Assembly: GCA_019058365.1 (NCBI GenBank)
Contig: JAHPZE010000003.1
Span: forward strand, 32,001 to 96,000
Direction of reading: 5' to 3'
Source: Promethearchaeota archaeon
GTDB lineage: Archaea > Asgardarchaeota > Lokiarchaeia > Sigyniarchaeales > SOKP01
DNA: 64,000 nucleotides
This document shows, piece after piece, positions 1,831-64,000 of the stretch. The notes beneath the pieces were generated by a model that was given only the letters and a program-made list of their open reading frames with translations, made no database searches and was not told the origin of the DNA. Within the stretch, counting starts at the first letter, position 1. Every line of letters starts with the position of its first letter. Both the position numbers and the translations under genes were made by a program.

Positions 1831-4800
1831 ATGCCAGACATGAGTAGAGCTATGGAATTATATTTTAATCAAATTCAAAAGCAAGTCAATGAATGTTATT
1901 CAATTGCTGAGCAAGCACGGCAAAAAGGTTTAGATCCTGAATTAGAAGTGGAATCCCCTCAGGCAAAAGATTTAGCTGGACGAGTAGAAAAACTTGTAGG
2001 GCCCGTGGGTGTTGCAGAGGTAATACGGGAGTTAAAAATAAAAGGATTGACTGAGGATGAACTTGTCTTTAAAGTAGTTGCTGATATTTTAGATGAAAAA
2101 ATTGGAAAGATTGCATCTTTAGAGGCCCGTGTGGATAGAGCAATAAGAGTAGGATTAGCTATTAAAACAATGGGTGTTGTAAGTGCTCCCCTGGAAGGAA
2201 TTTCTAAAATTTTAATTCGAAAAGATAATTTTGGCAGAAAATATCTATCTCTCTACTTTGCAGGCCCAATTCGGGCTGCAGGGGGGACAACCGCTGCACT
2301 TTGCGTATTAATTGCTGATTATGTAAGAAGAAAATCAAAAATTCCAAAATATGAAGCATCTGAAGCTGAAATTGGTAGATATGTTGAGGAGGTTAAATTA
2401 TATGACAGAATAGTACATTTACAATATCCTTCATCTAACCAAGAAATTCGATATGCTGTGAATCGATTGCCAGTAGAAATAAATGGTGATTCAACTGAAG
2501 ACGAAGAAGTGTCAGCATTCAGAGATCTACCTAGGATTGAAACAAATAATGTTAGAGGTGGTGCTTGTTTAGTTTTAAACGATGGTATTCTTCTTAAAGC
2601 ACCAAAATTACTAAAGATTGCTAAGGCTATGAAATTAGAAGGTTGGGACTGGCTTGAGGAATTAAAGAAAATTGCTCAGAAGCAAGATAATCAGGAGAAA
2701 GAAGAAAAAAGTGAGAAAAAAAACAATGTAAAAATCACCCCAAATTCGAAATTTGTTGCTGATATTATTGCTGGACGCCCAGTTTTCAGTCATCCTTCAG
2801 AAGTAGGTGGTCATAGAATAAGATATGGGCGTTCTAGAAATACGGGACTCGCCGCAGGAGGGATGCATCCGGCCACAATGGCTGTTTTAGATGATTTTGT
2901 AGCAATTGGAACACAATTGAGAATTGAACGTCCGGGAAAAAGCGCAAGTATATGTCCCGTGGATGGCATTGAACCACCAATTGTAAAACTGCAAAATGGT
3001 GATGTAATAAAAGTTTCAAGCATCAATAAAGCTAAACAGATTTTTTCTGAAATTAAAAAAGTGCTATTTATTGGCGATATATTGTTTGGATATGGTGAAT
3101 TTACTGAAAACAACCATCTATTAGTGCCCTCTGGATATGTAGAAGAGTGGTGGGCATTAGAATTAGAAAAATCTATTATTAACCTAGAAAAATGTGATAA
3201 GCAGCTACAAGCATTTATTAATAATCCTTTTACAAATATTCCTACAGCAGAAGAAGCAATTCAAATTTCAAAAAGATTTGATATTCCCTTACATCCTTCA
3301 TATTTGGATTTCTGGGGGAATATTACATTAGAAGAATTGGATTTATTACGAACTACGTTAATTAAGAGTTTCTCTAAATCTGAACGAAATATCAAGTTAA
3401 ATTATGAGAAATCGATAAAAAAGATTTTGGAAAAAGCATTTGTACTTCATAGAATAAAAGATAATAAAATAGTATTTAATAAAACAATGAGTCTCATTTA
3501 TAAAACAATTTTTAACTTAGAAGATGAAAAACTCATAAAAATTGAAAAGAATGATGATGTTTTCAATTATTTTTATAAGATTTCTTCACTCAAAATAAAA
3601 AATAAAGCACCATATTATATAGGCTCACGTATGGGAAGACCAGAAAAATCAGAAAGAAAAAGCATGAAAGGAGTTCATACATTATTTCCTTTAAGTGATG
3701 TTGTTGGTAGTTCGAGATTACTTGAAAAAGCCATAGGACATAATATTAAAAAAAGAAATGAAAATGAATTTGGATCTAAAAAAAGGAAGTCTATCGATTT
3801 TGGAAATAAAAATAACGTTGTAGAAACTGGTAAAGTCAGAATCGATGTATGTAGAAAAAAGTGTATGAATTGTGGGAAGTCGAGCATCTTTAATATTTGT
3901 CCGGTTTGTGGCACTCATACCGAAGTACAAAAAATCTGTCCACGATGCAAATTATTATATCCAACATTTGAGGAAAAATGCTCTAAGTGTCATGAAACTC
4001 TGAAAACCTCAAGTGAAGCTAAATTTAACATGAAAAAGTATGTAAACTCAGTATTAAAATCACTTAATATGCAATTACCTAAGAAAATAAAAGGTATTAT
4101 TGGATTAAGTAATGAATATAAAGTTCCAGAACCACTTGAAAAAGGAATTTTAAGAGCAAAAAATAATGTTTTAGTCTATAAAACAGCTGAGATAAGATAT
4201 GATGCCACAGATATACCATTAACTCATTTCAAGCCAAATGAAATTGGTACATCAATAAATTTATTAAAAAAATTAGGATATGAGACTGATTATTATAAAG
4301 ATCCTCTCAATAATGAAAATCAGGTTTTAGAATTGAAAGTTCAAGATGTCATTTTGTCTGATGACTGTGCTAAATACTTTATAAAGGTAGCTAAGTTCTT
4401 AGATGAAGAATTAGAGTTGTTTTATAAACTAAAGTGCTTTTATAATGTGTCTGTTAAAGAAGATTTAATAGGTCATTTAGTTGTGGGTTTAGCTCCTCAC
4501 ACGAGTGCCGGAATTATAGGAAGAATAATTGGTTTTACCCCAGCTCGATCAATCTATGCCCATCCTTATTGGCATGCCGCAAAGAGAAGAAATTGTGATG
4601 GAGATGAAGATGGGCTTATGCTACTTTTAGATCCTTTATTAAATTTTTCCAGACATTATCTCCCAAGTAAAATAGGAGGTCGGATGGACGCAACTCTAGT
4701 AATTGGTACAAAGATTGACCCTAATGAAATTGATGTGGAAGCGCTTAATATAGATACATTATTTAAATATCCTTTAGAATTTTATGAAGCAACTGAACGA

Positions 4801-8288: not shown

Positions 8289-8390
8289 AGCCTCTGGGGG
8301 GAATTGAACCCCCGACCTACAGATTACGAATCTTTAGCATTTTCTTCAAAGTGACATTTAATGTTGCTATACCTGCTAAGCCACAGAGGC
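8289..8390 (-). tRNA. tRNA-Thr(CGT) with a 29-nt intron at 28/29 (8334-8362)
   Basis: Acceptor GCCTCTG/CAGAGGC; spliced anticodon arm ACAGA-TTCGTAA-TCTGT; BHB central helix AGCA/TGCT with ACA and AAA bulges. Confidence 0.9.
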
Positions 8391-9607: not shown

Positions 9608-9711
9608 GGGCTATTGGCGCAGGCAGGTAGCGCAGCAGGCTTTTAACCTGACATTTAAGGGTATATCTCCCTTAAAAAGAAAGGTCGGGGGTTCAATTCC
9701 CCTATAGCCCG
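9608..9711 (+). tRNA. tRNA-Lys(TTT) with a ~30-nt insert near 43-45 (about 9653-9682)
   Basis: Acceptor GGGCTAT/ATAGCCC, D-stem GCGC/GCGC, CAGG-CTTTTAA-CCTG; the insert folds as TTTAAGGG/CCCTTAAA. Confidence 0.85.
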
Positions 9712-50758: not shown

Positions 50759-50867
50759 TTAGTTTAATTTTAATTGAATTTTAAATTTTATGGCCTAGCA
50801 TTTATAATTAAGAAGAAACATTTATTAAATCATTCTATAAAACAAAATTAGTTAAAAATAAAAGCTT

Positions 50868-50915
50868 CTACTCAAGAACATACTCCGTCCTTTCTTATCT
50901 CACTATTAAATCCTG
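50868..50915 (-). repeat. R7: 23S-trailer copy
   Basis: A-tract, then CTCAAGAACATACTCCGTCCTTTCTTATCTCA. Confidence 0.8.
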
Positions 50916-52408: not shown

Positions 52409-52507
52409 TCCGTTTCTTAATTTTTATTTACTAAATAGGATTTTTATGTTTTTAAACTTATTTGTCTAAGATTTAAACAATTCAAAAATTAAAAAAAATA
52501 AAATCCT

Positions 52508-52606
52508 TGCTCGTGAACATACTCCTTCCAGCTCTTCTCGTCTCAAACCAAGTATTTCTTCTCATCCATTTCTAAGCTACAAATCCTCATACCCTAAGCT
52601 TGAACT
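52508..52606 (-). repeat. R6: 23S-trailer copy
   Basis: A-tract, then TGCTCGTGAACATACTCC...TCTCAAACCA...CTAAGCTTGAAC. Confidence 0.85.
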
Positions 52607-54713: not shown

Positions 54714-54870
54714 TGCTCAAGAGCATACTCCTTCCCGTCTTATCTCAAAAAAGCATTTAACAAAACTTACCATCTCCATCCACACCACAATCCCCTACAC
54801 GTTAAGCTTGAACCTTGTGATTCCTCTTTCAACACTATACACCAGTGCTATTGAGAGCAGCGTGTTAAGA
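54714..54870 (-). repeat. R5: full 23S trailer plus last ~30 nt of 23S
   Basis: Colinear with about 61930-62080, including TCCCCTACACGTTAAGCTTGAACCTTGTG and GTGCTATTGAGAG. Confidence 0.92.
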
Positions 54871-54873
54871 ATC

Positions 54874-55365
54874 TTAAGAATATAACTTCCTTAAATATGA
54901 TTTTAATGTGTCAATATTTTTAAAGTAAAATAAGCTTTCCTCTTCCTTAAAAAAAGGTTTTAATAAACCTCCTCTTTTAAGGACTTCTGTAATTTCCGCA
55001 TCTCTTAATACGAATACTTTTGTCTTTTTAGAAAGTTCTCTAAAGGAGAGGATGATTCCCATTTCGATCATATGACCTCCTTTATCGTGTTCTATAATCA
55101 TGATGATTTCATTCGAAAATTTAGCAATAAGATCAAATTTAAAAATTAAATTCTCAAGATGGGTACGTCTAAATTCTTTTTCAAAAAATCCTAGGTTATT
55201 CTTAACAGAATTTACAATCTTTTGTACTTCTTGAAGAGTAGTGAAAGCTTCTTCATTGTACGAACCACAAATAAAGATCTTGTTTTTCTTCAAATCGTAA
55301 ACTGAAAAAATATTAGTAAATTCATCTAAAAAATCATCCCATGCATTATCGTGTGAAAACTGCAT
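54874..55365 (-). CDS. Hypothetical protein, possible nucleoside 2-deoxyribosyltransferase-like fold
   Basis: IFICGS and SNEIIMII...GGHMIEMG pattern. Confidence 0.55.
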   Translation of the reverse strand: MQFSHDNAWDDFLDEFTNIFSVYDLKKNKIFICGSYNEEAFTTLQEVQKIVNSVKNNLGFFEKEFRRTHLENLIFKFDLIAKFSNEIIMIIEHDKGGHMIEMGIILSFRELSKKTKVFVLRDAEITEVLKRGGLLKPFFKEEESLFYFKNIDTLKSYLRKLYS

Positions 55366-55538
55366 TCTCTACTCCCAATAAATATAAAATAAATTAGAAA
55401 TTCATTTATGGTATAATTTATTATATACCAATAATAATTGACTCAATTAATTTTGAGTTAAATTTAAATAATTGATTATGCATATTTAATTTGAAATTAG
55501 ATGAAATATAGAATATAAATAATGAGAGTGAAAAAGTT

Positions 55539-55880
55539 TTGGATACTCCCAAAAACCTTGAAAATATAAGGAAAGAATTGGAAATCATATCAGAAAAGAC
55601 ACGATATAAGATACTGCTAACTTTATTAGCTAGTGAAAAATCTCTCTCATTCAGTCGATTTAGGGAACTTTTACCTTCTATTCCAGAGAATACTCTGAAT
55701 TATCATCTTAAAATCCTTAAAGAACAAAATTTTATTAAAAATGAAAAAAGAATGGGATACAAACGTTCTGAACCTCGCTCTTTTTATTCTCTTAGGAAAA
55801 AATCCATTGATCTGCTTGGAAATTTAGGTTTAAATGATGTGAAAGAAGAATTTCAAGCGTTATTTAAACAAATGACATAA
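55539..55880 (+). CDS. ArsR-like winged-helix regulator
   Basis: TRYKILLTL, LSFS and NTLNYHLKIL. Confidence 0.85.
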   Translation: MDTPKNLENIRKELEIISEKTRYKILLTLLASEKSLSFSRFRELLPSIPENTLNYHLKILKEQNFIKNEKRMGYKRSEPRSFYSLRKKSIDLLGNLGLNDVKEEFQALFKQMT

Positions 55881-55901
55881 TTTATTTTTTAAAAAAAAAA
55901 A

Positions 55902-55970
55902 CGCTGCTCAAGAACATACTCCCCCTCGTCTTGTCCGTTCCATCTCGTTTTTATTCTTATCACCACCCCC
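55902..55970 (-). repeat. R4: 23S-trailer copy
   Basis: A11 tract, then CGCTGCTCAAGAACATACTCC and a pyrimidine-rich tail. Confidence 0.8.
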
Positions 55971-56173
55971 AAACACAAACAAAAAAAAATAAAAAACCAT
56001 AGCTAATATAACAGAAATTTTATAATCTTAAAAAACTCCTTTATTTAATATAACTAGACAAATTTATCAAAATATTGGACTCATAATTGTTATGACCATA
56101 TATCCTGAAATTGTATAATCTTATAGTTGTATTATTCTTTATATTTAAATATAACATTAAGTTGAAATAAGTT

Positions 56174-56839
56174 ATGAAATATACTTCTATCTTTGATGTA
56201 ATTGGCCATATAATGGTTGGACCAAGTTCAAGCCATACTGCAGGAGCGTGTCAAATTGCGTATGTTGCACGGTTATTATTTGGAAAAAAGCCTAAAACTG
56301 TAAAAATAGGACTTCATGGTTCATTTGCAGAGACATATAAAGGTCATGGTACGGATATCGCAATTTTAGCTGGACTACTTGGATTTACACCTGAAGATGA
56401 TATGATCAAAAACGCATTTGAAATTGCTGAAAAAGAGGGGCTTGATTATTCATTTGAACTTGTGGATTTAGGGGTGGATTACCATCCAAATTCAGTTAGT
56501 ATAGAGATGTTTGATGGATCAGAAAAAATGAATGTAATAGGTTCTTCAATTGGAGGAGGTAACATAATAATCAAAGAAGTTAATAGCTTAGAAGCAGGAT
56601 TTGGGGGAGAACCAAATACGCTCGTAATATTAAATCATGACAAGATTGGGGCACTTGTAAATATAGCAAATACACTTCAAAAATTTAAATTAAATATAGG
56701 ATCGATGAAAATCTCCAGAAATTTGAAAAAAAAGATATCTTTAACATGGCTTGAAGCAGATACCGCGATACCAGAAGATCTAATTGATGCATTAAAAAAA
56801 TATCCAGAAATAATTTGGGTGAGGGTAATCAATGTTTGA
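56174..56839 (+). CDS. sdaAB: Fe-S L-serine dehydratase beta subunit
   Basis: MVGPSSSHTAGA, GHGTD, HPN, SIGGG and an ACT domain. Confidence 0.95.
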   Translation: MKYTSIFDVIGHIMVGPSSSHTAGACQIAYVARLLFGKKPKTVKIGLHGSFAETYKGHGTDIAILAGLLGFTPEDDMIKNAFEIAEKEGLDYSFELVDLGVDYHPNSVSIEMFDGSEKMNVIGSSIGGGNIIIKEVNSLEAGFGGEPNTLVILNHDKIGALVNIANTLQKFKLNIGSMKISRNLKKKISLTWLEADTAIPEDLIDALKKYPEIIWVRVINV

Positions 56840-57698
56840 ATCTATTTCTAATCTGCTCAATGAATCTCAAACAAAAGGGATTCCATTACATGAATTAATA
56901 ATAAACGATGAAATGGAATTTCAAAATATTCCTAAGCGGATTATAATTGAAAAGCTTAATAAATCTTTAATTATAATGAAACAGTCTCTTGAAAAAGCAC
57001 TTGTAAGTGATATTGAATTGCCGATCAAAGAAGCAAGCCATCAGGCAAAAAGAATGCTTTCACCAGGAATTTTCTGTGGAACTAATTTAAAAGAAGCCGT
57101 GGGCTGGGCAATGGCTATCGGTGAATATAATAGTGGTATGGGATTAATTGTTGCTTGTCCTACAGCAGGTTCTTCTGGAACCCTACCTGCTGTTCTTTTT
57201 AAAGCTAAAGAAATTCTAAATAAATCGGATGATGATGTATTAAACGCTTTAATCGTTGCGGCAGCAATAGGGGCAATTATTGGTAATAACGCAATGCTTT
57301 CGGGAAGTGAAGGAGGTTGTCAAGCTGAAATTGGAGTTGCATCTGCAATGGCGTCGGCTGCTATAACTTATATGGCTGGAGGAACCCATCTTCAGATAGA
57401 CAATGCGATTGCATTAACATTAAAAAATCTATTAGGACTTGTTTGTGATCCTGTTGCCGGATTAGTAATTTCACCATGCATTAAAAGGAATGCTATAGGT
57501 GTGGTTAACGCATTTTTAGCTGCTGAAATGGCAATATCAGGAGTTGTATCTATTATCCCAGCAGATGAAGTTGTGGATGCTATGATGAAAGTTGGTCGTA
57601 AATTACCATATGAATTAAAAGAGACAGGAAAGGGTGGAATAGCAGCAACTAAAACGGGGAAAAGAATAAGAAAGAGCCTTTTTTCTGATATGTTATAA
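56832..57698 (+). CDS. sdaAA: Fe-S L-serine dehydratase alpha subunit
   Basis: ACPTAGS, GGCQAEIG, GLVCDPVAG, PCIKRN and ETGKGG. Confidence 0.95.
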   Translation: MFESISNLLNESQTKGIPLHELIINDEMEFQNIPKRIIIEKLNKSLIIMKQSLEKALVSDIELPIKEASHQAKRMLSPGIFCGTNLKEAVGWAMAIGEYNSGMGLIVACPTAGSSGTLPAVLFKAKEILNKSDDDVLNALIVAAAIGAIIGNNAMLSGSEGGCQAEIGVASAMASAAITYMAGGTHLQIDNAIALTLKNLLGLVCDPVAGLVISPCIKRNAIGVVNAFLAAEMAISGVVSIIPADEVVDAMMKVGRKLPYELKETGKGGIAATKTGKRIRKSLFSDML

Positions 57699-58012
57699 CA
57701 TTTATAAATCCAATAGAAAAAAAAGGATGAGTGAGAAATTAAAAATTGAATAATTAGGTCTTTATATTTTTTTTTATTCTCCCTATTTTTATGATTGGAA
57801 TTGTTCACTAAATTTTCATTGAAATCAGGCAGAAATAAATATATCCATTAATATATGTTCTTGAAAAATTAATCATCTCGAATTTTAATAATATACGTTC
57901 TAAAAATATAATTTCTTGCATTTGTTCATCTAATTGTTCAAGATTTAGTTCGAAATAAAAACAAAAATTATAAATATTATTGTTCTATTATATAATATAA
58001 TGGTGTTCAATT

Positions 58013-58687
58013 ATGAAAATGATGATTGAAAAAGATAGAAAAGAGATAATTTCAGAAGTGCAAAAATATGGTGGTATAGGTCTGCGACACCAATCTTTAA
58101 GAGTACACAAGAATGGGGCAAAATTTCCAATAAGTAAGAACTATATTGATGATGAACTTTTGGATCCCGAAATAGTATATACTCTTATTTTAATACCGGA
58201 AATTAAAATTGCTACTAAAACTAGTGTAGCATTAAGTTATTTTGCTCGAAAAAAAGGTCCTCTCGTATTTTATACATATCCCGAGAGCATTCTTGAAGAA
58301 GGTTTTTCCGTTCAAATTGCAAATATAATGGTTCAAGTATCTAAAGAGGGTTTCTTTGCCAACCAGTCAAGCACTGTACCATCAACCTTGAATTATTATT
58401 TTGAAATTCCTTCAGAATGGGCTCGTGGAAATAAAGAAATGCTCATGATCAGCGTGTTTTTAGATAAACCTATAAATAAGCTACTAGAAAAAAGGATTCA
58501 GGAAATATGTACTGATTTTGCTTTGCAATTAAAAAATGCAGAAGGACTTTTTAAAGCGCTATATATGGAAACAATTGATAAAATTCCGGAAAAGGATCGT
58601 TCAGACATTAAAAAATTTAATGAAAATTTAAAAACTAAAATAAAAACTTTATATGAGGAAATAGAAATATCGAGTAAGGAAAAATGA
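58013..58687 (+). CDS. Hypothetical protein, possible longin/uDENN-like domain
   Basis: LSYF...GPLVFYTYP and SEWARG..MLMIS pattern. Confidence 0.55.
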   Translation: MKMMIEKDRKEIISEVQKYGGIGLRHQSLRVHKNGAKFPISKNYIDDELLDPEIVYTLILIPEIKIATKTSVALSYFARKKGPLVFYTYPESILEEGFSVQIANIMVQVSKEGFFANQSSTVPSTLNYYFEIPSEWARGNKEMLMISVFLDKPINKLLEKRIQEICTDFALQLKNAEGLFKALYMETIDKIPEKDRSDIKKFNENLKTKIKTLYEEIEISSKEK

Positions 58688-58691
58688 AGAT

Positions 58692-58804
58692 GGTCGCCCG
58701 AAAGCTCCCTACGTACACCCACACCTCACTAACCCCGTCTTTTACGGGTGTACTTGTCTCGCATACTCAGTTCGCACCACCGCGCTCTGATCTCGTTACT
58801 CAGC
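58692..58804 (-). repeat. R3: 113-nt copy of mature 23S sequence (62083-62195)
   Basis: 7 mismatches and no gaps against 62083-62195. Confidence 0.96.
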
Positions 58805-60625
58805 TTAGGGAACAAAATAATGGGTATTTTGTTGGTGATCCTGTGAATGTATTTTCCCAGTCGATCTAAGTTTATTCAATGTTTCTTTTAGATTTTCTTT
58901 TCCGAATTCTAACATTTTAGGATCTTTAAGAAAATTTTCTAACCTTTTTTCTAAAGCTTCTAATGTAAAAGCAGAACCTTGATTATCTTTCAAATAATTG
59001 TAAATTTTTTCTTTAAAATCTTCTTCAATTGAATATTCCTTCTTAATTGTTGTTGTTTTTTTAAATGCCAGTTTCTCAATAATTTCCATATTCCTTTTTG
59101 TTAAAGCAAAGTCACTTTTAATTTCAAGTGCTTTTTGGTAGCATTTATATGCTACCTCGTATTGCATGAGCATTTGTTGGGCAACACCATTAGCTGTCCA
59201 TGATTTTTCATCAGGGAAGAATCCATGATGCTTAGCTTCTACAGATTTCAGATGTGTTTTTGAAAGATCAGGACGCTTGAATTTAGAAATGTTATTCTTA
59301 GCCATTAGACCATACATCATAATTTGTATTGGATTAAATCCTAATTGCTGACTTTTTGCAAAACACATAAGGGCATTTTTAAACTCTCCCAAGGCGCAGT
59401 GCGCTTTCCCACGATAAAACCATGCTGGTCCTGATGTGGGCTCACGTTCATTGATTCTAATTAATGTAGTAAGAGCACTTTCAAAATTACCAGTTGCTTC
59501 TTCTTCAACGACCATTTGCAATAATTCTTCTATATTCTCTTTATGCATGGGAGTCCTGCAATACGGGCATATACCACTGTTGGTATAATTTTTCTTTCCA
59601 CAGCGGGGACAATAATCACGTCCATCAACAACTGAATGAATTGTACCTTCTACTCCCATCGTACTGAAATGCTTCAATGCATCGATTTGTTCTTTAGCAT
59701 TTTCATGATTAGGTTTTAACTCCAATGTTTTTTTATAATCAGCCAAGGCTCTCTCAAATTGATTAGTTTTTTTGAAACTTGTTGCTCGGTTATAGTATGC
59801 CCCCTCAAAATCTGGATTAATTTCGATAGATTTAGAATAACTTAATATTGCTTCATCATATCTCTCCAGTGAATCTAATGCAAGCCCTTTATTATTATAT
59901 GAAGCAGAATAATTGGGATTTAACTCTATAGCTCTATCATAACATTCAATAGCTTTTTCAAATAAATTTTGGCTATCATAAACCCACCCTTTATGAACCC
60001 ACGCTAAAAATAATGTTGGTTCATATTTTAATGCTTTTTCGAAATAAACAAGTGCATTTTTTTGATTCTGAGACATTTGGTTAATGATACCTAAGTAAAG
60101 ATAAGCCTCAGCAAATTCTGGGAATATTTTAATCGCAGAATTAATCGCATTAAGAGCTTCAGACATTTTATTTCGATGGGTAAGTTTAATACCCTGTTTA
60201 AATAAGTCTAAAGCTTTTTTTGGAATGTTTTTGCCTTCAACTTTTAATGATCCAAAAAACTCCTTCTGTCGCTTTGCTTGCATTAGTAGAGGGAGAGCTT
60301 GTCGAAAATTAGGATTATGCTTCAAAATTTTCTCAATTGTCTCTATTGATTCATCATATTTTCCCTCCATTAAGAGCATTAATGCAAGATTGAGAAGTGT
60401 AAAGGGATTGTAAGGATCATAAGAAAGTGCACGATTAAGACATTCTTTTGCTTTCTCAAACTCCTCAAGGTGGAGATAAACACTTCCCATATTGCAAAAT
60501 AACTCTGGATCGTCATCTACTAGTTTATAAGCCTTTTTAAAAAAATTTAAAGCTTCTTGTGGTTTACGATTATTCAATGCTATTGTGCCTTGGTTGTATA
60601 AATCTTCGTATTCTTTACTATACAA
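58805..60625 (-). CDS. TPR-repeat protein with an internal zinc ribbon
   Basis: Many TPR units (A...Y..A.EL.P) and CPRC...CPYC. Confidence 0.92.
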   Translation of the reverse strand: MYSKEYEDLYNQGTIALNNRKPQEALNFFKKAYKLVDDDPELFCNMGSVYLHLEEFEKAKECLNRALSYDPYNPFTLLNLALMLLMEGKYDESIETIEKILKHNPNFRQALPLLMQAKRQKEFFGSLKVEGKNIPKKALDLFKQGIKLTHRNKMSEALNAINSAIKIFPEFAEAYLYLGIINQMSQNQKNALVYFEKALKYEPTLFLAWVHKGWVYDSQNLFEKAIECYDRAIELNPNYSASYNNKGLALDSLERYDEAILSYSKSIEINPDFEGAYYNRATSFKKTNQFERALADYKKTLELKPNHENAKEQIDALKHFSTMGVEGTIHSVVDGRDYCPRCGKKNYTNSGICPYCRTPMHKENIEELLQMVVEEEATGNFESALTTLIRINEREPTSGPAWFYRGKAHCALGEFKNALMCFAKSQQLGFNPIQIMMYGLMAKNNISKFKRPDLSKTHLKSVEAKHHGFFPDEKSWTANGVAQQMLMQYEVAYKCYQKALEIKSDFALTKRNMEIIEKLAFKKTTTIKKEYSIEEDFKEKIYNYLKDNQGSAFTLEALEKRLENFLKDPKMLEFGKENLKETLNKLRSTGKIHSQDHQQNTHYFVP

Positions 60626-60759
60626 TAAAAATCACATTTTTGTCTTTGTAATAAAATATTTGTTTAATTAATTTATAAATATTTTTAAGATTGAGATATG
60701 AACATTGAATACCCAAATTTGGATACCTTCTTAATTAAAAATAAGAAAAAATAAAACCG

Positions 60760-60874
60760 TGCTCTAAAACATACTCCAGTCCTTCTCGTCTCAAACCATT
60801 CAATCCTTACCTTATTGCTCCGTCCACGCGACAATCCCCTACACGCTAAGCCTGAACCTTATGATTCCCCTTTC
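60760..60874 (-). repeat. R2: 23S-trailer copy
   Basis: Colinear with 61930-62041, roughly 80% identical by eye; exact TCCCCTACACGCTAAGCCTGAACCTT. Confidence 0.93.
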
Positions 60875-61253: not shown

Positions 61254-61311
61254 TTTAAGAATTAAAGTTGAAAACGTTACTACTAAATAAGTAAAAGAAA
61301 TATAAAAATAA

Positions 61312-61356
61312 TGCTCATGAACATACTCCTTCTAAACCCTTCTCATCTCAAACCAT
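61312..61356 (-). repeat. R1: short 23S-trailer copy
   Basis: TGCTCATGAACATACTCCTTC...CCTTCTCATCTCAAACCA after an A-tract. Confidence 0.88.
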
Positions 61357-61870: not shown

Positions 61871-61910
61871 AATACTTCTATATCAATTTTTCCTAAATAA
61901 ATCATATGAT

Positions 61911-61925
61911 AAAAAAAAAATAAAA
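61911..61925 (-). terminator. Oligo-T terminator of the 23S transcript
   Basis: TTTTATTTTTTTTTT on the minus strand right after the G-rich trailer. Confidence 0.7.
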
Positions 61926-61927
61926 TC

Positions 61928-62050
61928 GCTGCTCTAGAGCACACTCCATCCCTTCTCTTATCTCAAATCATTCATTCCTTACCATCCCCTCCACGCTACA
62001 TTCCCCTACACGCTAAGCCTGAACCTTGTGGTTCCTTTTTCAACACCACA
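61928..62050 (-). other. 23S pre-rRNA 3' trailer (R0, reference repeat copy)
   Basis: G-rich 120-nt stretch between the 23S end and the T-tract; hairpin TGTGG..CCACA and terminal palindrome TGCTCTAGAGCA. Confidence 0.7.
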
Positions 62051-62147
62051 CACTCGTGCTATTGAGAGTGGCGGGCTGAACAGGTCGCCCGAAAGCTCCC
62101 TGCGTACACCCCCACCTCACTAACCCCGTCTTTTACGGGTGCACTCG

Positions 62148-62391
62148 TCTCGCATACTCAGTTCGCGTCACCGCGCCCTGATCTCGTTACTCAGCATCCC
62201 ATACATTCAAATTATAATGCTTCTCGCTTCATGCTCATGCATATGTCTACCCTCATGCTTCCGCTTCCACAATCAAGCACACACTTACACTCGCACTTAC
62301 ACTCCGATTGGCTTCCGGTTTTCACAGGAGAACCTTACCAATCACACTAACTTAAATACACAACATACCTCGCAACACTCTTTACACGAGA
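62148..62391 (-). other. ES39 (helix 98) expansion segment, about 244 nt
   Basis: Non-conserved insert closed by TCTCG/CGAGA at the H98 position. Confidence 0.82.
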
Positions 62392-62580
62392 TTGGCTGAC
62401 TATTTTCGGGTTTGGCTTCGTGCTTAGATGCTTTCAGCACTTATCCATTGGCGCGTGGCTGCCCGGCCTTACCTTGTCAGATAACCGGTACACTAGAGGC
62501 GCCGGCAAAATGTTCCTCTCGTACTGATTTTCCCTTGCCCTCAGTCAACCCACAAACCCAGTAGATAGAATCCGACCTGT

Positions 62581-63391
<811 letters not shown>

Positions 63392-64000
63392 TTAATGGGC
63401 GTACAGCCCCACCCTTGGAGGTTCTGCGCTGTGCTCCACTACGGAAACACATATGTGCGCCTCCAGGATAGGAAGAGCCGACATCGAGGAAGCAAGCCAC
63501 GAGGTCGATAGGGACTCTTACTCGTGACAACTCTGTTACCCCCGGGGTAATTTTTCTATCACCTCAACCATCCACACGAGAAATGTTGAGGATCGCTAGA
63601 CCAGGCGTTAGCCTCAGGATTCCTTGGTGATCAGAATCCAGTCAGACCAGCTTATGCTCTTAAACTCTTCAGCGGATTCCTGACCCGCTTGAGCTGATCA
63701 TAGGTTACTCTAGATATTGTTTCTAGAGTGAGCCGCCCCAGCCAAACTGCCCACCTGCGGGTGTCCGACGCGGTATAGGCGCCGTTAGCGATTTCAAAGG
63801 GGAAAGCCGGTGTTCCAATTGTGCTCCGCCGCTACCGAGATAGCGACATCGACGCTCCCGACTACACTCTGTATCCAATTCAAAACCGCAGCAACAAGCT
63901 GCAGTAAAACTCCACGGGGTCTTCTCGTCCCACTGGGTTTCTCCGGACCGTTCGCCGGAGTGCAAGTTCAATCGTCAGGAGGCTGGGACAAGAGGGAGAA

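Follow-up and report, generated by a model that had tools for sequence, protein, structure and literature searches.

Partial copies of the genes for transfer RNA (tRNA) and transfer-messenger RNA (tmRNA) reportedly flank integrated elements, and the tRNA genes of archaeal chromosomes are reported to be sites of “gene capture” (She et al. 2001, Nature 409:478; Williams 2002, NAR 30:866). The present analysis concerns the region behind the 23S ribosomal RNA (rRNA) gene of a Promethearchaeota archaeon and, within it, a 113-nucleotide (nt) fragment of mature 23S rRNA located at positions 58692-58804 of the window, the window being the whole 64,000-nt stretch of DNA that was analysed (C35:32001-96000, C35 denoting contig JAHPZE010000003.1). 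The fragment is probably a non-functional, neutrally decaying remnant of the lineage's own 23S 3′ region, generated by reshuffling behind the 23S gene.

Another type of event that must be considered is the insertion with long target duplication, reportedly described by Nobusato et al. in 2000. In these insertions, blocks devoid of a mobility gene are flanked by direct duplications of the target whose length varies from tens to ~400 bp; the process is described for bacterial restriction-modification genes, with no archaeal case left after the screen (Furuta, Abe & Kobayashi 2010, PMC2853133). Furthermore, homology-facilitated illegitimate recombination (PMC3240628) combines one homologous anchor with one illegitimate joint, and is reported to have been demonstrated experimentally only in bacteria. 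As to Asgard archaea, full-text literature searches yielded no published description of arrays of 23S-tail relics, the report by Wu et al. (PMC8813620) concerning only an element beside the 16S gene.

The Fragment, Its Live Counterpart and Its Flanking Genes

The elements on which the argument rests are the following (window coordinates; aa, amino acids).

58692-58804, rRNA sense on the minus strand: 113-nt relic of the 23S rRNA 3′ domain, 93.8% identical to 62083-62195
58013-58687, plus strand: 224-aa gene unassigned to any Pfam family, with 4 nt between its TGA and the relic
58805-60625, minus strand: 606-aa TPR-repeat gene, its TAA (58805-58807) abutting the relic
62083-62195, minus strand: live counterpart of the relic in the single 23S gene (RF02540 positions 2883 to ~2944 plus ES39 insertion)
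62042-64000, minus strand: 3′ part of the only 23S rRNA gene, which leaves the window at 64000

Alignment of 58692-58804 with 62083-62195 covers 113 nt with 7 mismatches and 0 gaps (106/113 identical), and a BLAST search of the whole assembly (G000, 4.74 Mb in 54 contigs; E ~7e-44) returned these two copies and no other. Going from the live gene to the fragment, and reading the plus strand, the changes are 62102 G>A, 62112 C>A, 62142 C>T, 62146 C>T, 62167 G>A, 62168 T>C and 62177 C>T, six of them being GC-to-AT and one AT-to-GC, so that both the number and the prevailing direction of the substitutions given in the preliminary description of this DNA were recovered by alignment and BLAST. Equally accurate was its statement that the piece fills the gap between the two convergent stop codons: the spacer extending from TGA 58685-58687 to TAA 58805-58807 measures 117 nt, and all but four of these bases (113/117) belong to the fragment, whose GC content is 56.6% vs ~32% for the flanks.

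The position of the fragment within the rRNA was established by scanning 61900-62590 with the Rfam model LSU_rRNA_archaea (RF02540; 208 bits); identity at 106/113 positions to a segment that aligns to this model identifies the fragment as 23S rRNA-derived sequence. The last model position, i.e., the 3′ end of 23S rRNA, falls at 62042, whereas ES39 appears at H98 as 244 additional nt (62149-62392) that separate model position 2882 from 2883. The live counterpart spans the last 47 nt of ES39, the 5′ strand of helix H99, all of H100 and, of H101, the 5′ strand, the loop and 2 nt of the 3′ strand, an extent that the preliminary description had summarized as the H101 region into ES39. The fragment ends at the equivalent of 62083, 41 nt before the 23S 3′ end, and the 3′ strands of both H99 and H101, the 23S 3′ end, the trailer and the terminator are absent from it. 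ES39 itself is variable in length, several relatives being without ~85 nt corresponding to 62222-62306 of the window.

The two genes that enclose the fragment have different distributions. Orthologues of the 224-aa gene exist in genomes G001, G011, G017, G008 and G027, but their DNA homology to G000 ends within a few bases of the stop codon, the DNA downstream being unrelated and differing at 5/5 orthologous loci. On the other hand, no orthologue of the 606-aa TPR gene was found in the 40 same-genus genomes sampled. The two genes are adjacent in no other sampled genome, no orthologous context was found for the fragment, and the latter was seen in this genome alone.

Allelic Origin and Decay of the Fragment

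The preliminary description regarded the fragment as the relic of a displaced 23S allele and proposed an alignment as the means of establishing whether its variants match the alleles of other strains or break base pairing. An alignment that combined the fragment, 15 other relics and 10 live 23S alleles of the genus shows that the differences at 62112, 62142, 62146, 62167, 62168 and 62177, six of the seven, are private to the fragment and fall at sites invariant in all 10 live alleles; the covered invariant sites number 90, and the six changes that hit them consist of 5 GC-to-AT and 1 AT-to-GC. The seventh difference, 62102, lies at a position that is polymorphic in the live alleles, a wobble-tolerant position of H101 (C-G vs U.G). 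The variants therefore do not match those of other strains. As to pairing, projection onto the Rfam structure indicates that the change at 62112 would turn a G-C pair of H101 into U.C, and that at 62142 a G-C pair of H99 into A.C, both pairs being conserved; disruption of pairing, the other outcome envisaged, is thus what is expected of these two changes.

The upper (3′-most) end of the fragment reads “GTTACTCAGC”, a state shared only by the live alleles of G000 and G001. Since the variants are private and the “GTTACTCAGC” end is of resident type, the fragment descends from the sequence of the resident lineage itself, from which it then drifted; the same two features rule out a foreign 23S allele or the allele of another strain. 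The fragment is a decayed derivative of the resident 23S rRNA and not a second working allele. A functional 23S allele or a second rRNA gene would have a different aspect, the helix strands and the 3′ end being missing here, the pairs broken and the variants private. Of the original interpretation, what stands is that the piece is a relic of the 23S 3′ region; what does not stand is its attribution to a distinct allele, six of the seven variants being present in no live allele and the end matching the resident type.

Concerning the age of the fragment, change has affected ~10% of its GC sites and ~3% of its AT sites in a genome whose GC content is 29%, and the four-fold sites of six genes common to G000 and its nearest relative, G005, are 7.7% divergent (31/402). 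By a rough calculation, this amount of decay fits neutral, AT-biased drift lasting roughly as long as the time elapsed from the G000/G005 split. At this locus G005 retains the neighbouring block (window 54715-57828) at 94.5% identity and has neither of the two flanking genes (224-aa and TPR) nor the fragment.

Relics of the 23S Tail Behind the Live Gene

The fragment is one member of a series of 23S tail copies, all in the same orientation, found downstream of the live gene. The other copies within the window are at 61282-61356, 60743-60874, 54714-54880, 52468-52605 and 50854-50902, and every one of them is anchored at the terminator/trailer end. The fragment is the only copy cut on both sides, and the comparison upholds the original remark that in this respect, as in having neither trailer nor terminator, it differs from the others. 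Two members of the series deserve a separate description.

54714-54880, minus strand: older trailer-anchored relic consisting of the trailer and the last ~40 nt of mature 23S, orthologous to the G005 copy
60743-60874, minus strand: trailer-only relic with 80% identity to the live trailer, flanked by the TPR gene and a 70-aa open reading frame (ORF)

The first of these adjoins a gene of 163 aa, and its upper end is next to the position at which the 113-nt piece begins.

Series of this kind are not peculiar to this genome. Same-orientation 23S tail relics, kilobases apart behind the live gene, were found in at least seven genomes of the same genus (G000, G001, G005, G008, G011, G024 and G031), and the loci have in common gene modules whose order differs, for example a 163-aa + HTH pair, the alpha and beta components of serine dehydratase, and a 425-aa + 180-aa pair. 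As a rule, a few tens of bases at most separate the upper end of a relic from the stop codon of a gene running in the rRNA direction, and the next gene begins ~100 nt beyond the terminator end; the position of the relics is thus that of 3′ flanks, a role that they may play. A very young case is that of G031 (L032 = G031:C34, 187-457 vs 3628-3919), in which identity between the relic and its own live gene is 100% over 172 nt comprising the proximal trailer and the mature 3′ region and then drops sharply to ~78% in the distal trailer, and a 501-aa gene stops 17 nt from the upper end. This pattern is the signature expected when a new tail is installed together with its cargo and the old tail is pushed downstream.

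Doubly cut, internal pieces of 23S recur as well. One is present in G001 (L035 = G001:C145, 3456-3509), between convergent stop codons, one in G008 (L033 = G008:C98, 4105-4181), flush with the TAG of a 1001-aa gene antisense to the rRNA, and a further one in G011 (L034 = G011:C160, 17023-17086). More generally, the relics of the relatives end at many positions of the mature 3′ domain, in keeping with the earlier suggestion that breakpoints can fall inside the mature rRNA. Two single-contig genomes have relics located hundreds of kilobases from the live gene (G006:C1 728255-728424 and 932700-932794; G023:C1 487326-487509); relics, or blocks carrying relics, are therefore not confined to the rRNA locus.

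The live gene of this genome has a feature of its own, a 773-nt intron/insertion (62584-63356) near the peptidyl-transferase region, because of which the first Rfam match to 23S stopped at 63319. This insertion, which G005 and G031 do not have in their 23S genes, contains on the minus strand an ORF (62651-63286) for a 211-aa LAGLIDADG protein (PF14528, E = 3e-9). The 16S (C35:148365-149856) and 23S (C35:~94042 onwards) genes are single, unlinked genes on the same strand, ~50 kb apart, and a relic array was looked for, and not found, behind the 16S gene of this genome.

A second repeat family, approximately “TTCACTAAATTTTCATTGAAATCAGACTCTGAATTTACC” with the dyad TCAGA.TCTGA, is found in the window at 57806-57840 and, in G000, at C16:418370-427030 (4 copies) and at C7:29795 and 32550; under the motif “CATTGAAATCAGACTCTGAATTTAC” the family was traced to two other loci and is tied to no RNA gene. 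The synteny shared by G000 and G005 is interrupted midway through the motif (57828), and in G001 and G017 the family brackets the 224-aa gene on both sides; it could be either an operator or a recombination joint. Elsewhere in the window, the tRNA matches at 9608-9711 and 8289-8390 are 102-104 nt long vs a 71-position model and probably contain introns.

Origin of the Fragment

The derivation of the fragment from the region behind the 23S gene finds a plausible setting in what is seen in the genus, where accessory genes would have been repeatedly inserted, replaced and shuffled directly behind this gene. The order of events and the recombination mechanism that we infer are as follows. The most likely route would be ordinary homologous recombination anchored in the conserved rRNA, combined with illegitimate joints, and each such event could leave a spare copy of the 23S tail in the same orientation. 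In a first step, a 23S-anchored recombination would have installed new downstream DNA, leaving beside the TPR gene a tail copy of resident type that reached into ES39; in a second step, an illegitimate event would have deleted the lower part of this copy (3′ strand of H101, 3′ end, trailer and terminator), joining what was left to the end of the 224-aa gene.

Several facts weigh against this scheme. No single-step event yields a doubly cut piece and two events must be assumed; both ends of the fragment are 0-4 nt from stop codons, which is tighter than random joints would be unless later deletions trimmed them; and a grouping of several independent relic ends around the H101 loop (~62075-62090) hints at a preferred site. 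This site is the loop of a CGGGC/GCCCG hairpin, and the cluster amounts to ~5 independent ends in 27 nt vs ~2.2 expected, a difference that is not significant (p ~0.07, with an interval chosen post hoc). Finally, the junctions rest on one assembly, and an exact-pattern scan of the metagenome_contigs and genome_contigs collections found no other assembly with either junction.

A broader interpretation, possible although doubtful, is that the fragment marks a secondary breakpoint in a recombinase-free, 23S-anchored gene-capture array common in this Promethearchaeia (Lokiarchaeia) genus, in which the displaced tails would provide ready-made 3′ flanks and terminators as well as joints for swapping blocks between species. 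According to this interpretation the GC-rich H101 loop (~62075-62090) would be a preferred break site and the LAGLIDADG endonuclease could supply the initiating breaks. Breaks made by this enzyme could promote recombination within the final 540 nt of the 23S gene. Concerning the recombinase, no tyrosine recombinase (PF00589) was found on the array contigs of G000, G001, G005, G008 and G011, the matches being on other contigs, while serine and other recombinase types were not searched. Nor does the fragment have the attributes of an integrase att repeat: within the limits of the PF00589 search there is no recombinase beside the element, and a direct repeat restoring the 3′ end of the gene is not formed, since the fragment stops 41 nt short of it. 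No virus- or plasmid-borne copy of this rRNA piece usable as attP was found and no viral contig carries the piece, two 18-mer matches on viral contigs being attributable to chance (24 nt in unrelated phage DNA of 45% GC).

Two other routes would account for the same piece of DNA without the deletion of a displaced tail. Templated filling, in which the live 23S gene, 3.3 kb away, would have served as template for the 113 nt that closed a break between the convergent genes (by template switching or microhomology-mediated repair), no displaced tail having ever been there, would explain why the piece is doubly cut, in cis and in the same orientation, why the source allele is of resident type, and why a possible 4-nt microhomology, TGAA, is seen at the left junction. 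This route is nevertheless unlikely: the flanking genes are not neighbours in any other sampled genome, so that nothing documents an earlier junction between them, the left junction departs from a clean microhomology joint (GAT in the fragment vs CA in the live gene), and relics formed by another route abound at the locus. The alternative that the fragment is the upper half of one old 23S copy, whose lower half would be the relic at 54714-54880, the two having been split at the H101 loop by the 3.8-kb block 54881-58691, is attractive inasmuch as the pieces tile the live sequence, the 54.8-kb copy fading at ~62080 and the fragment beginning at 62083, and inasmuch as both ends of the block are 3′ ends of genes (stops at 54874 and 58687). 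Yet this splitting is quite unlikely, given that the lower piece is more decayed (7/32 invariant sites changed vs 6/90; Fisher p = 0.039) and occupies an orthologous place next to the 163-aa gene in both G005 and G008, two genomes in which the block is not followed by an upper half. Indeed, the 163-aa/HTH/serine-dehydratase block and the lower relic, with unrelated sequence on the far side, are already found in three relatives. Furthermore, the TGAA of the left junction is native to the 224-aa gene, being conserved in its orthologues, and represents no target duplication; a target-site duplication TGAA(C/G)A at the two halves was likewise discarded, “AAAAATGAA” being native to the 224-aa gene in the orthologues.

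A different kind of explanation would see in the fragment a functional RNA element, be it a sense mimic of 23S in the 3′ untranslated region (UTR) of the TPR transcript, an antisense to 23S, or a hairpin acting as spacer or terminator of the convergent gene pair. The orientation permits both transcripts. The nearest T5 available to the minus-strand TPR gene is at 58680-58684 (an A run on the plus strand), just outside the fragment, so that the TPR transcripts would carry the fragment in sense as 3′ UTR; read-through from the 224-aa gene would instead be antisense to 23S, the orientation that the preliminary description had deduced. In addition, H100 is intact in the fragment, and the internal fragments of G001, G008 and G011 all overlap H100, but at those lengths such an overlap is nearly unavoidable. 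On the whole a function is highly improbable: the six private changes, which hit sites constant in the live alleles, speak against any pressure to remain rRNA-like, folding stability compared with 200 shuffles shows no excess on either strand (z = -1.1 sense, -0.7 antisense), and the fragment, being restricted to this genome, has no orthologous copies in which covariation could be sought, so that the stability beyond composition expected of a structured regulatory RNA is not seen. Moreover, the fragment contains no run of T5 or longer, the plus strand having only a T4 (58740) and the minus strand none, and hence no archaeal terminator (T5+ on the transcribed strand). As far as can be read from the DNA, the fragment appears to be a non-functional relic, and nothing suggests that its sense or antisense transcription matters.

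That the fragment is an artefact, produced by a chimeric join via rRNA-like reads in a metagenome-assembled genome, is hardly credible. The number of contigs, 54, the estimated contamination of 6.6% and the lack of the junctions in independent assemblies are compatible with it, but six of the changes are found in no live 23S allele, which excludes an origin from rRNA reads of this or a co-occurring strain; the fragment is only 113 nt long and lies between unique genes within a 323-kb contig; and independent assemblies of other species display the same kind of internal fragment.

Comparison with Known Systems

The fragment itself is ordinary decaying DNA and it is the locus that is unusual. As a remnant of the resident 23S tail, the fragment represents a dated marker, indicating that recombination behind the single 23S gene cuts within the mature rRNA and re-uses the resident allele, and that the resulting debris decays approximately neutrally. 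Taken together, the relics document a hot spot for the gain and loss of genes that has an rRNA gene, instead of a tRNA gene, as its anchor and no visible integrase. If true, this would bear on the movement of accessory genes, such as those for small GTPases and TPR proteins, among Asgard lineages; it also entails a practical warning, in that 23S relics can confuse both the calling of rRNA genes and binning in metagenome-assembled genomes.

The affinity with tRNA- and tmRNA-anchored capture consists in the presence, downstream of a stable-RNA gene, of partial 3′ copies in the same orientation that delimit accessory blocks, in the serial nature of the events and in the decay of the old copies. 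However, the anchor is here the 23S rRNA gene, no integrase gene of the tyrosine type, the type searched, is present in or near the arrays of five genomes, and the length of the copies varies from ~50 to 280 nt; in particular the 113-nt piece, lacking the 3′ end of the gene, cannot be an att repeat as it now stands.

Insertion with long target duplication agrees with the young relic of G031 and with the locus as a whole, but the target is here always the 23S tail and the events are stacked, and the 113-nt piece is a secondary remnant and not an intact duplication; for this piece the comparison with the empty site is provided by G005, which differs by more than one event, so that a single insertion is not reconstructable. 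As for homology-facilitated illegitimate recombination (PMC3240628), the 23S anchor would admit a foreign flank whose other end is joined at little or no homology, thereby displacing the resident tail at a variable point within the mature rRNA; unlike the process demonstrated in bacteria, the one proposed here is deduced from structure. Finally, integron cassette arrays differ from this locus in that no IntI-type recombinase was found here, in that the repeats are copies of the rRNA tail and not attC hairpins, and in that the blocks commonly comprise several genes, which are oriented in both directions and have upstream regions of their own; what the two have in common are stacked cassettes, repeated sites beside a fixed anchor and an order that is shuffled between relatives.

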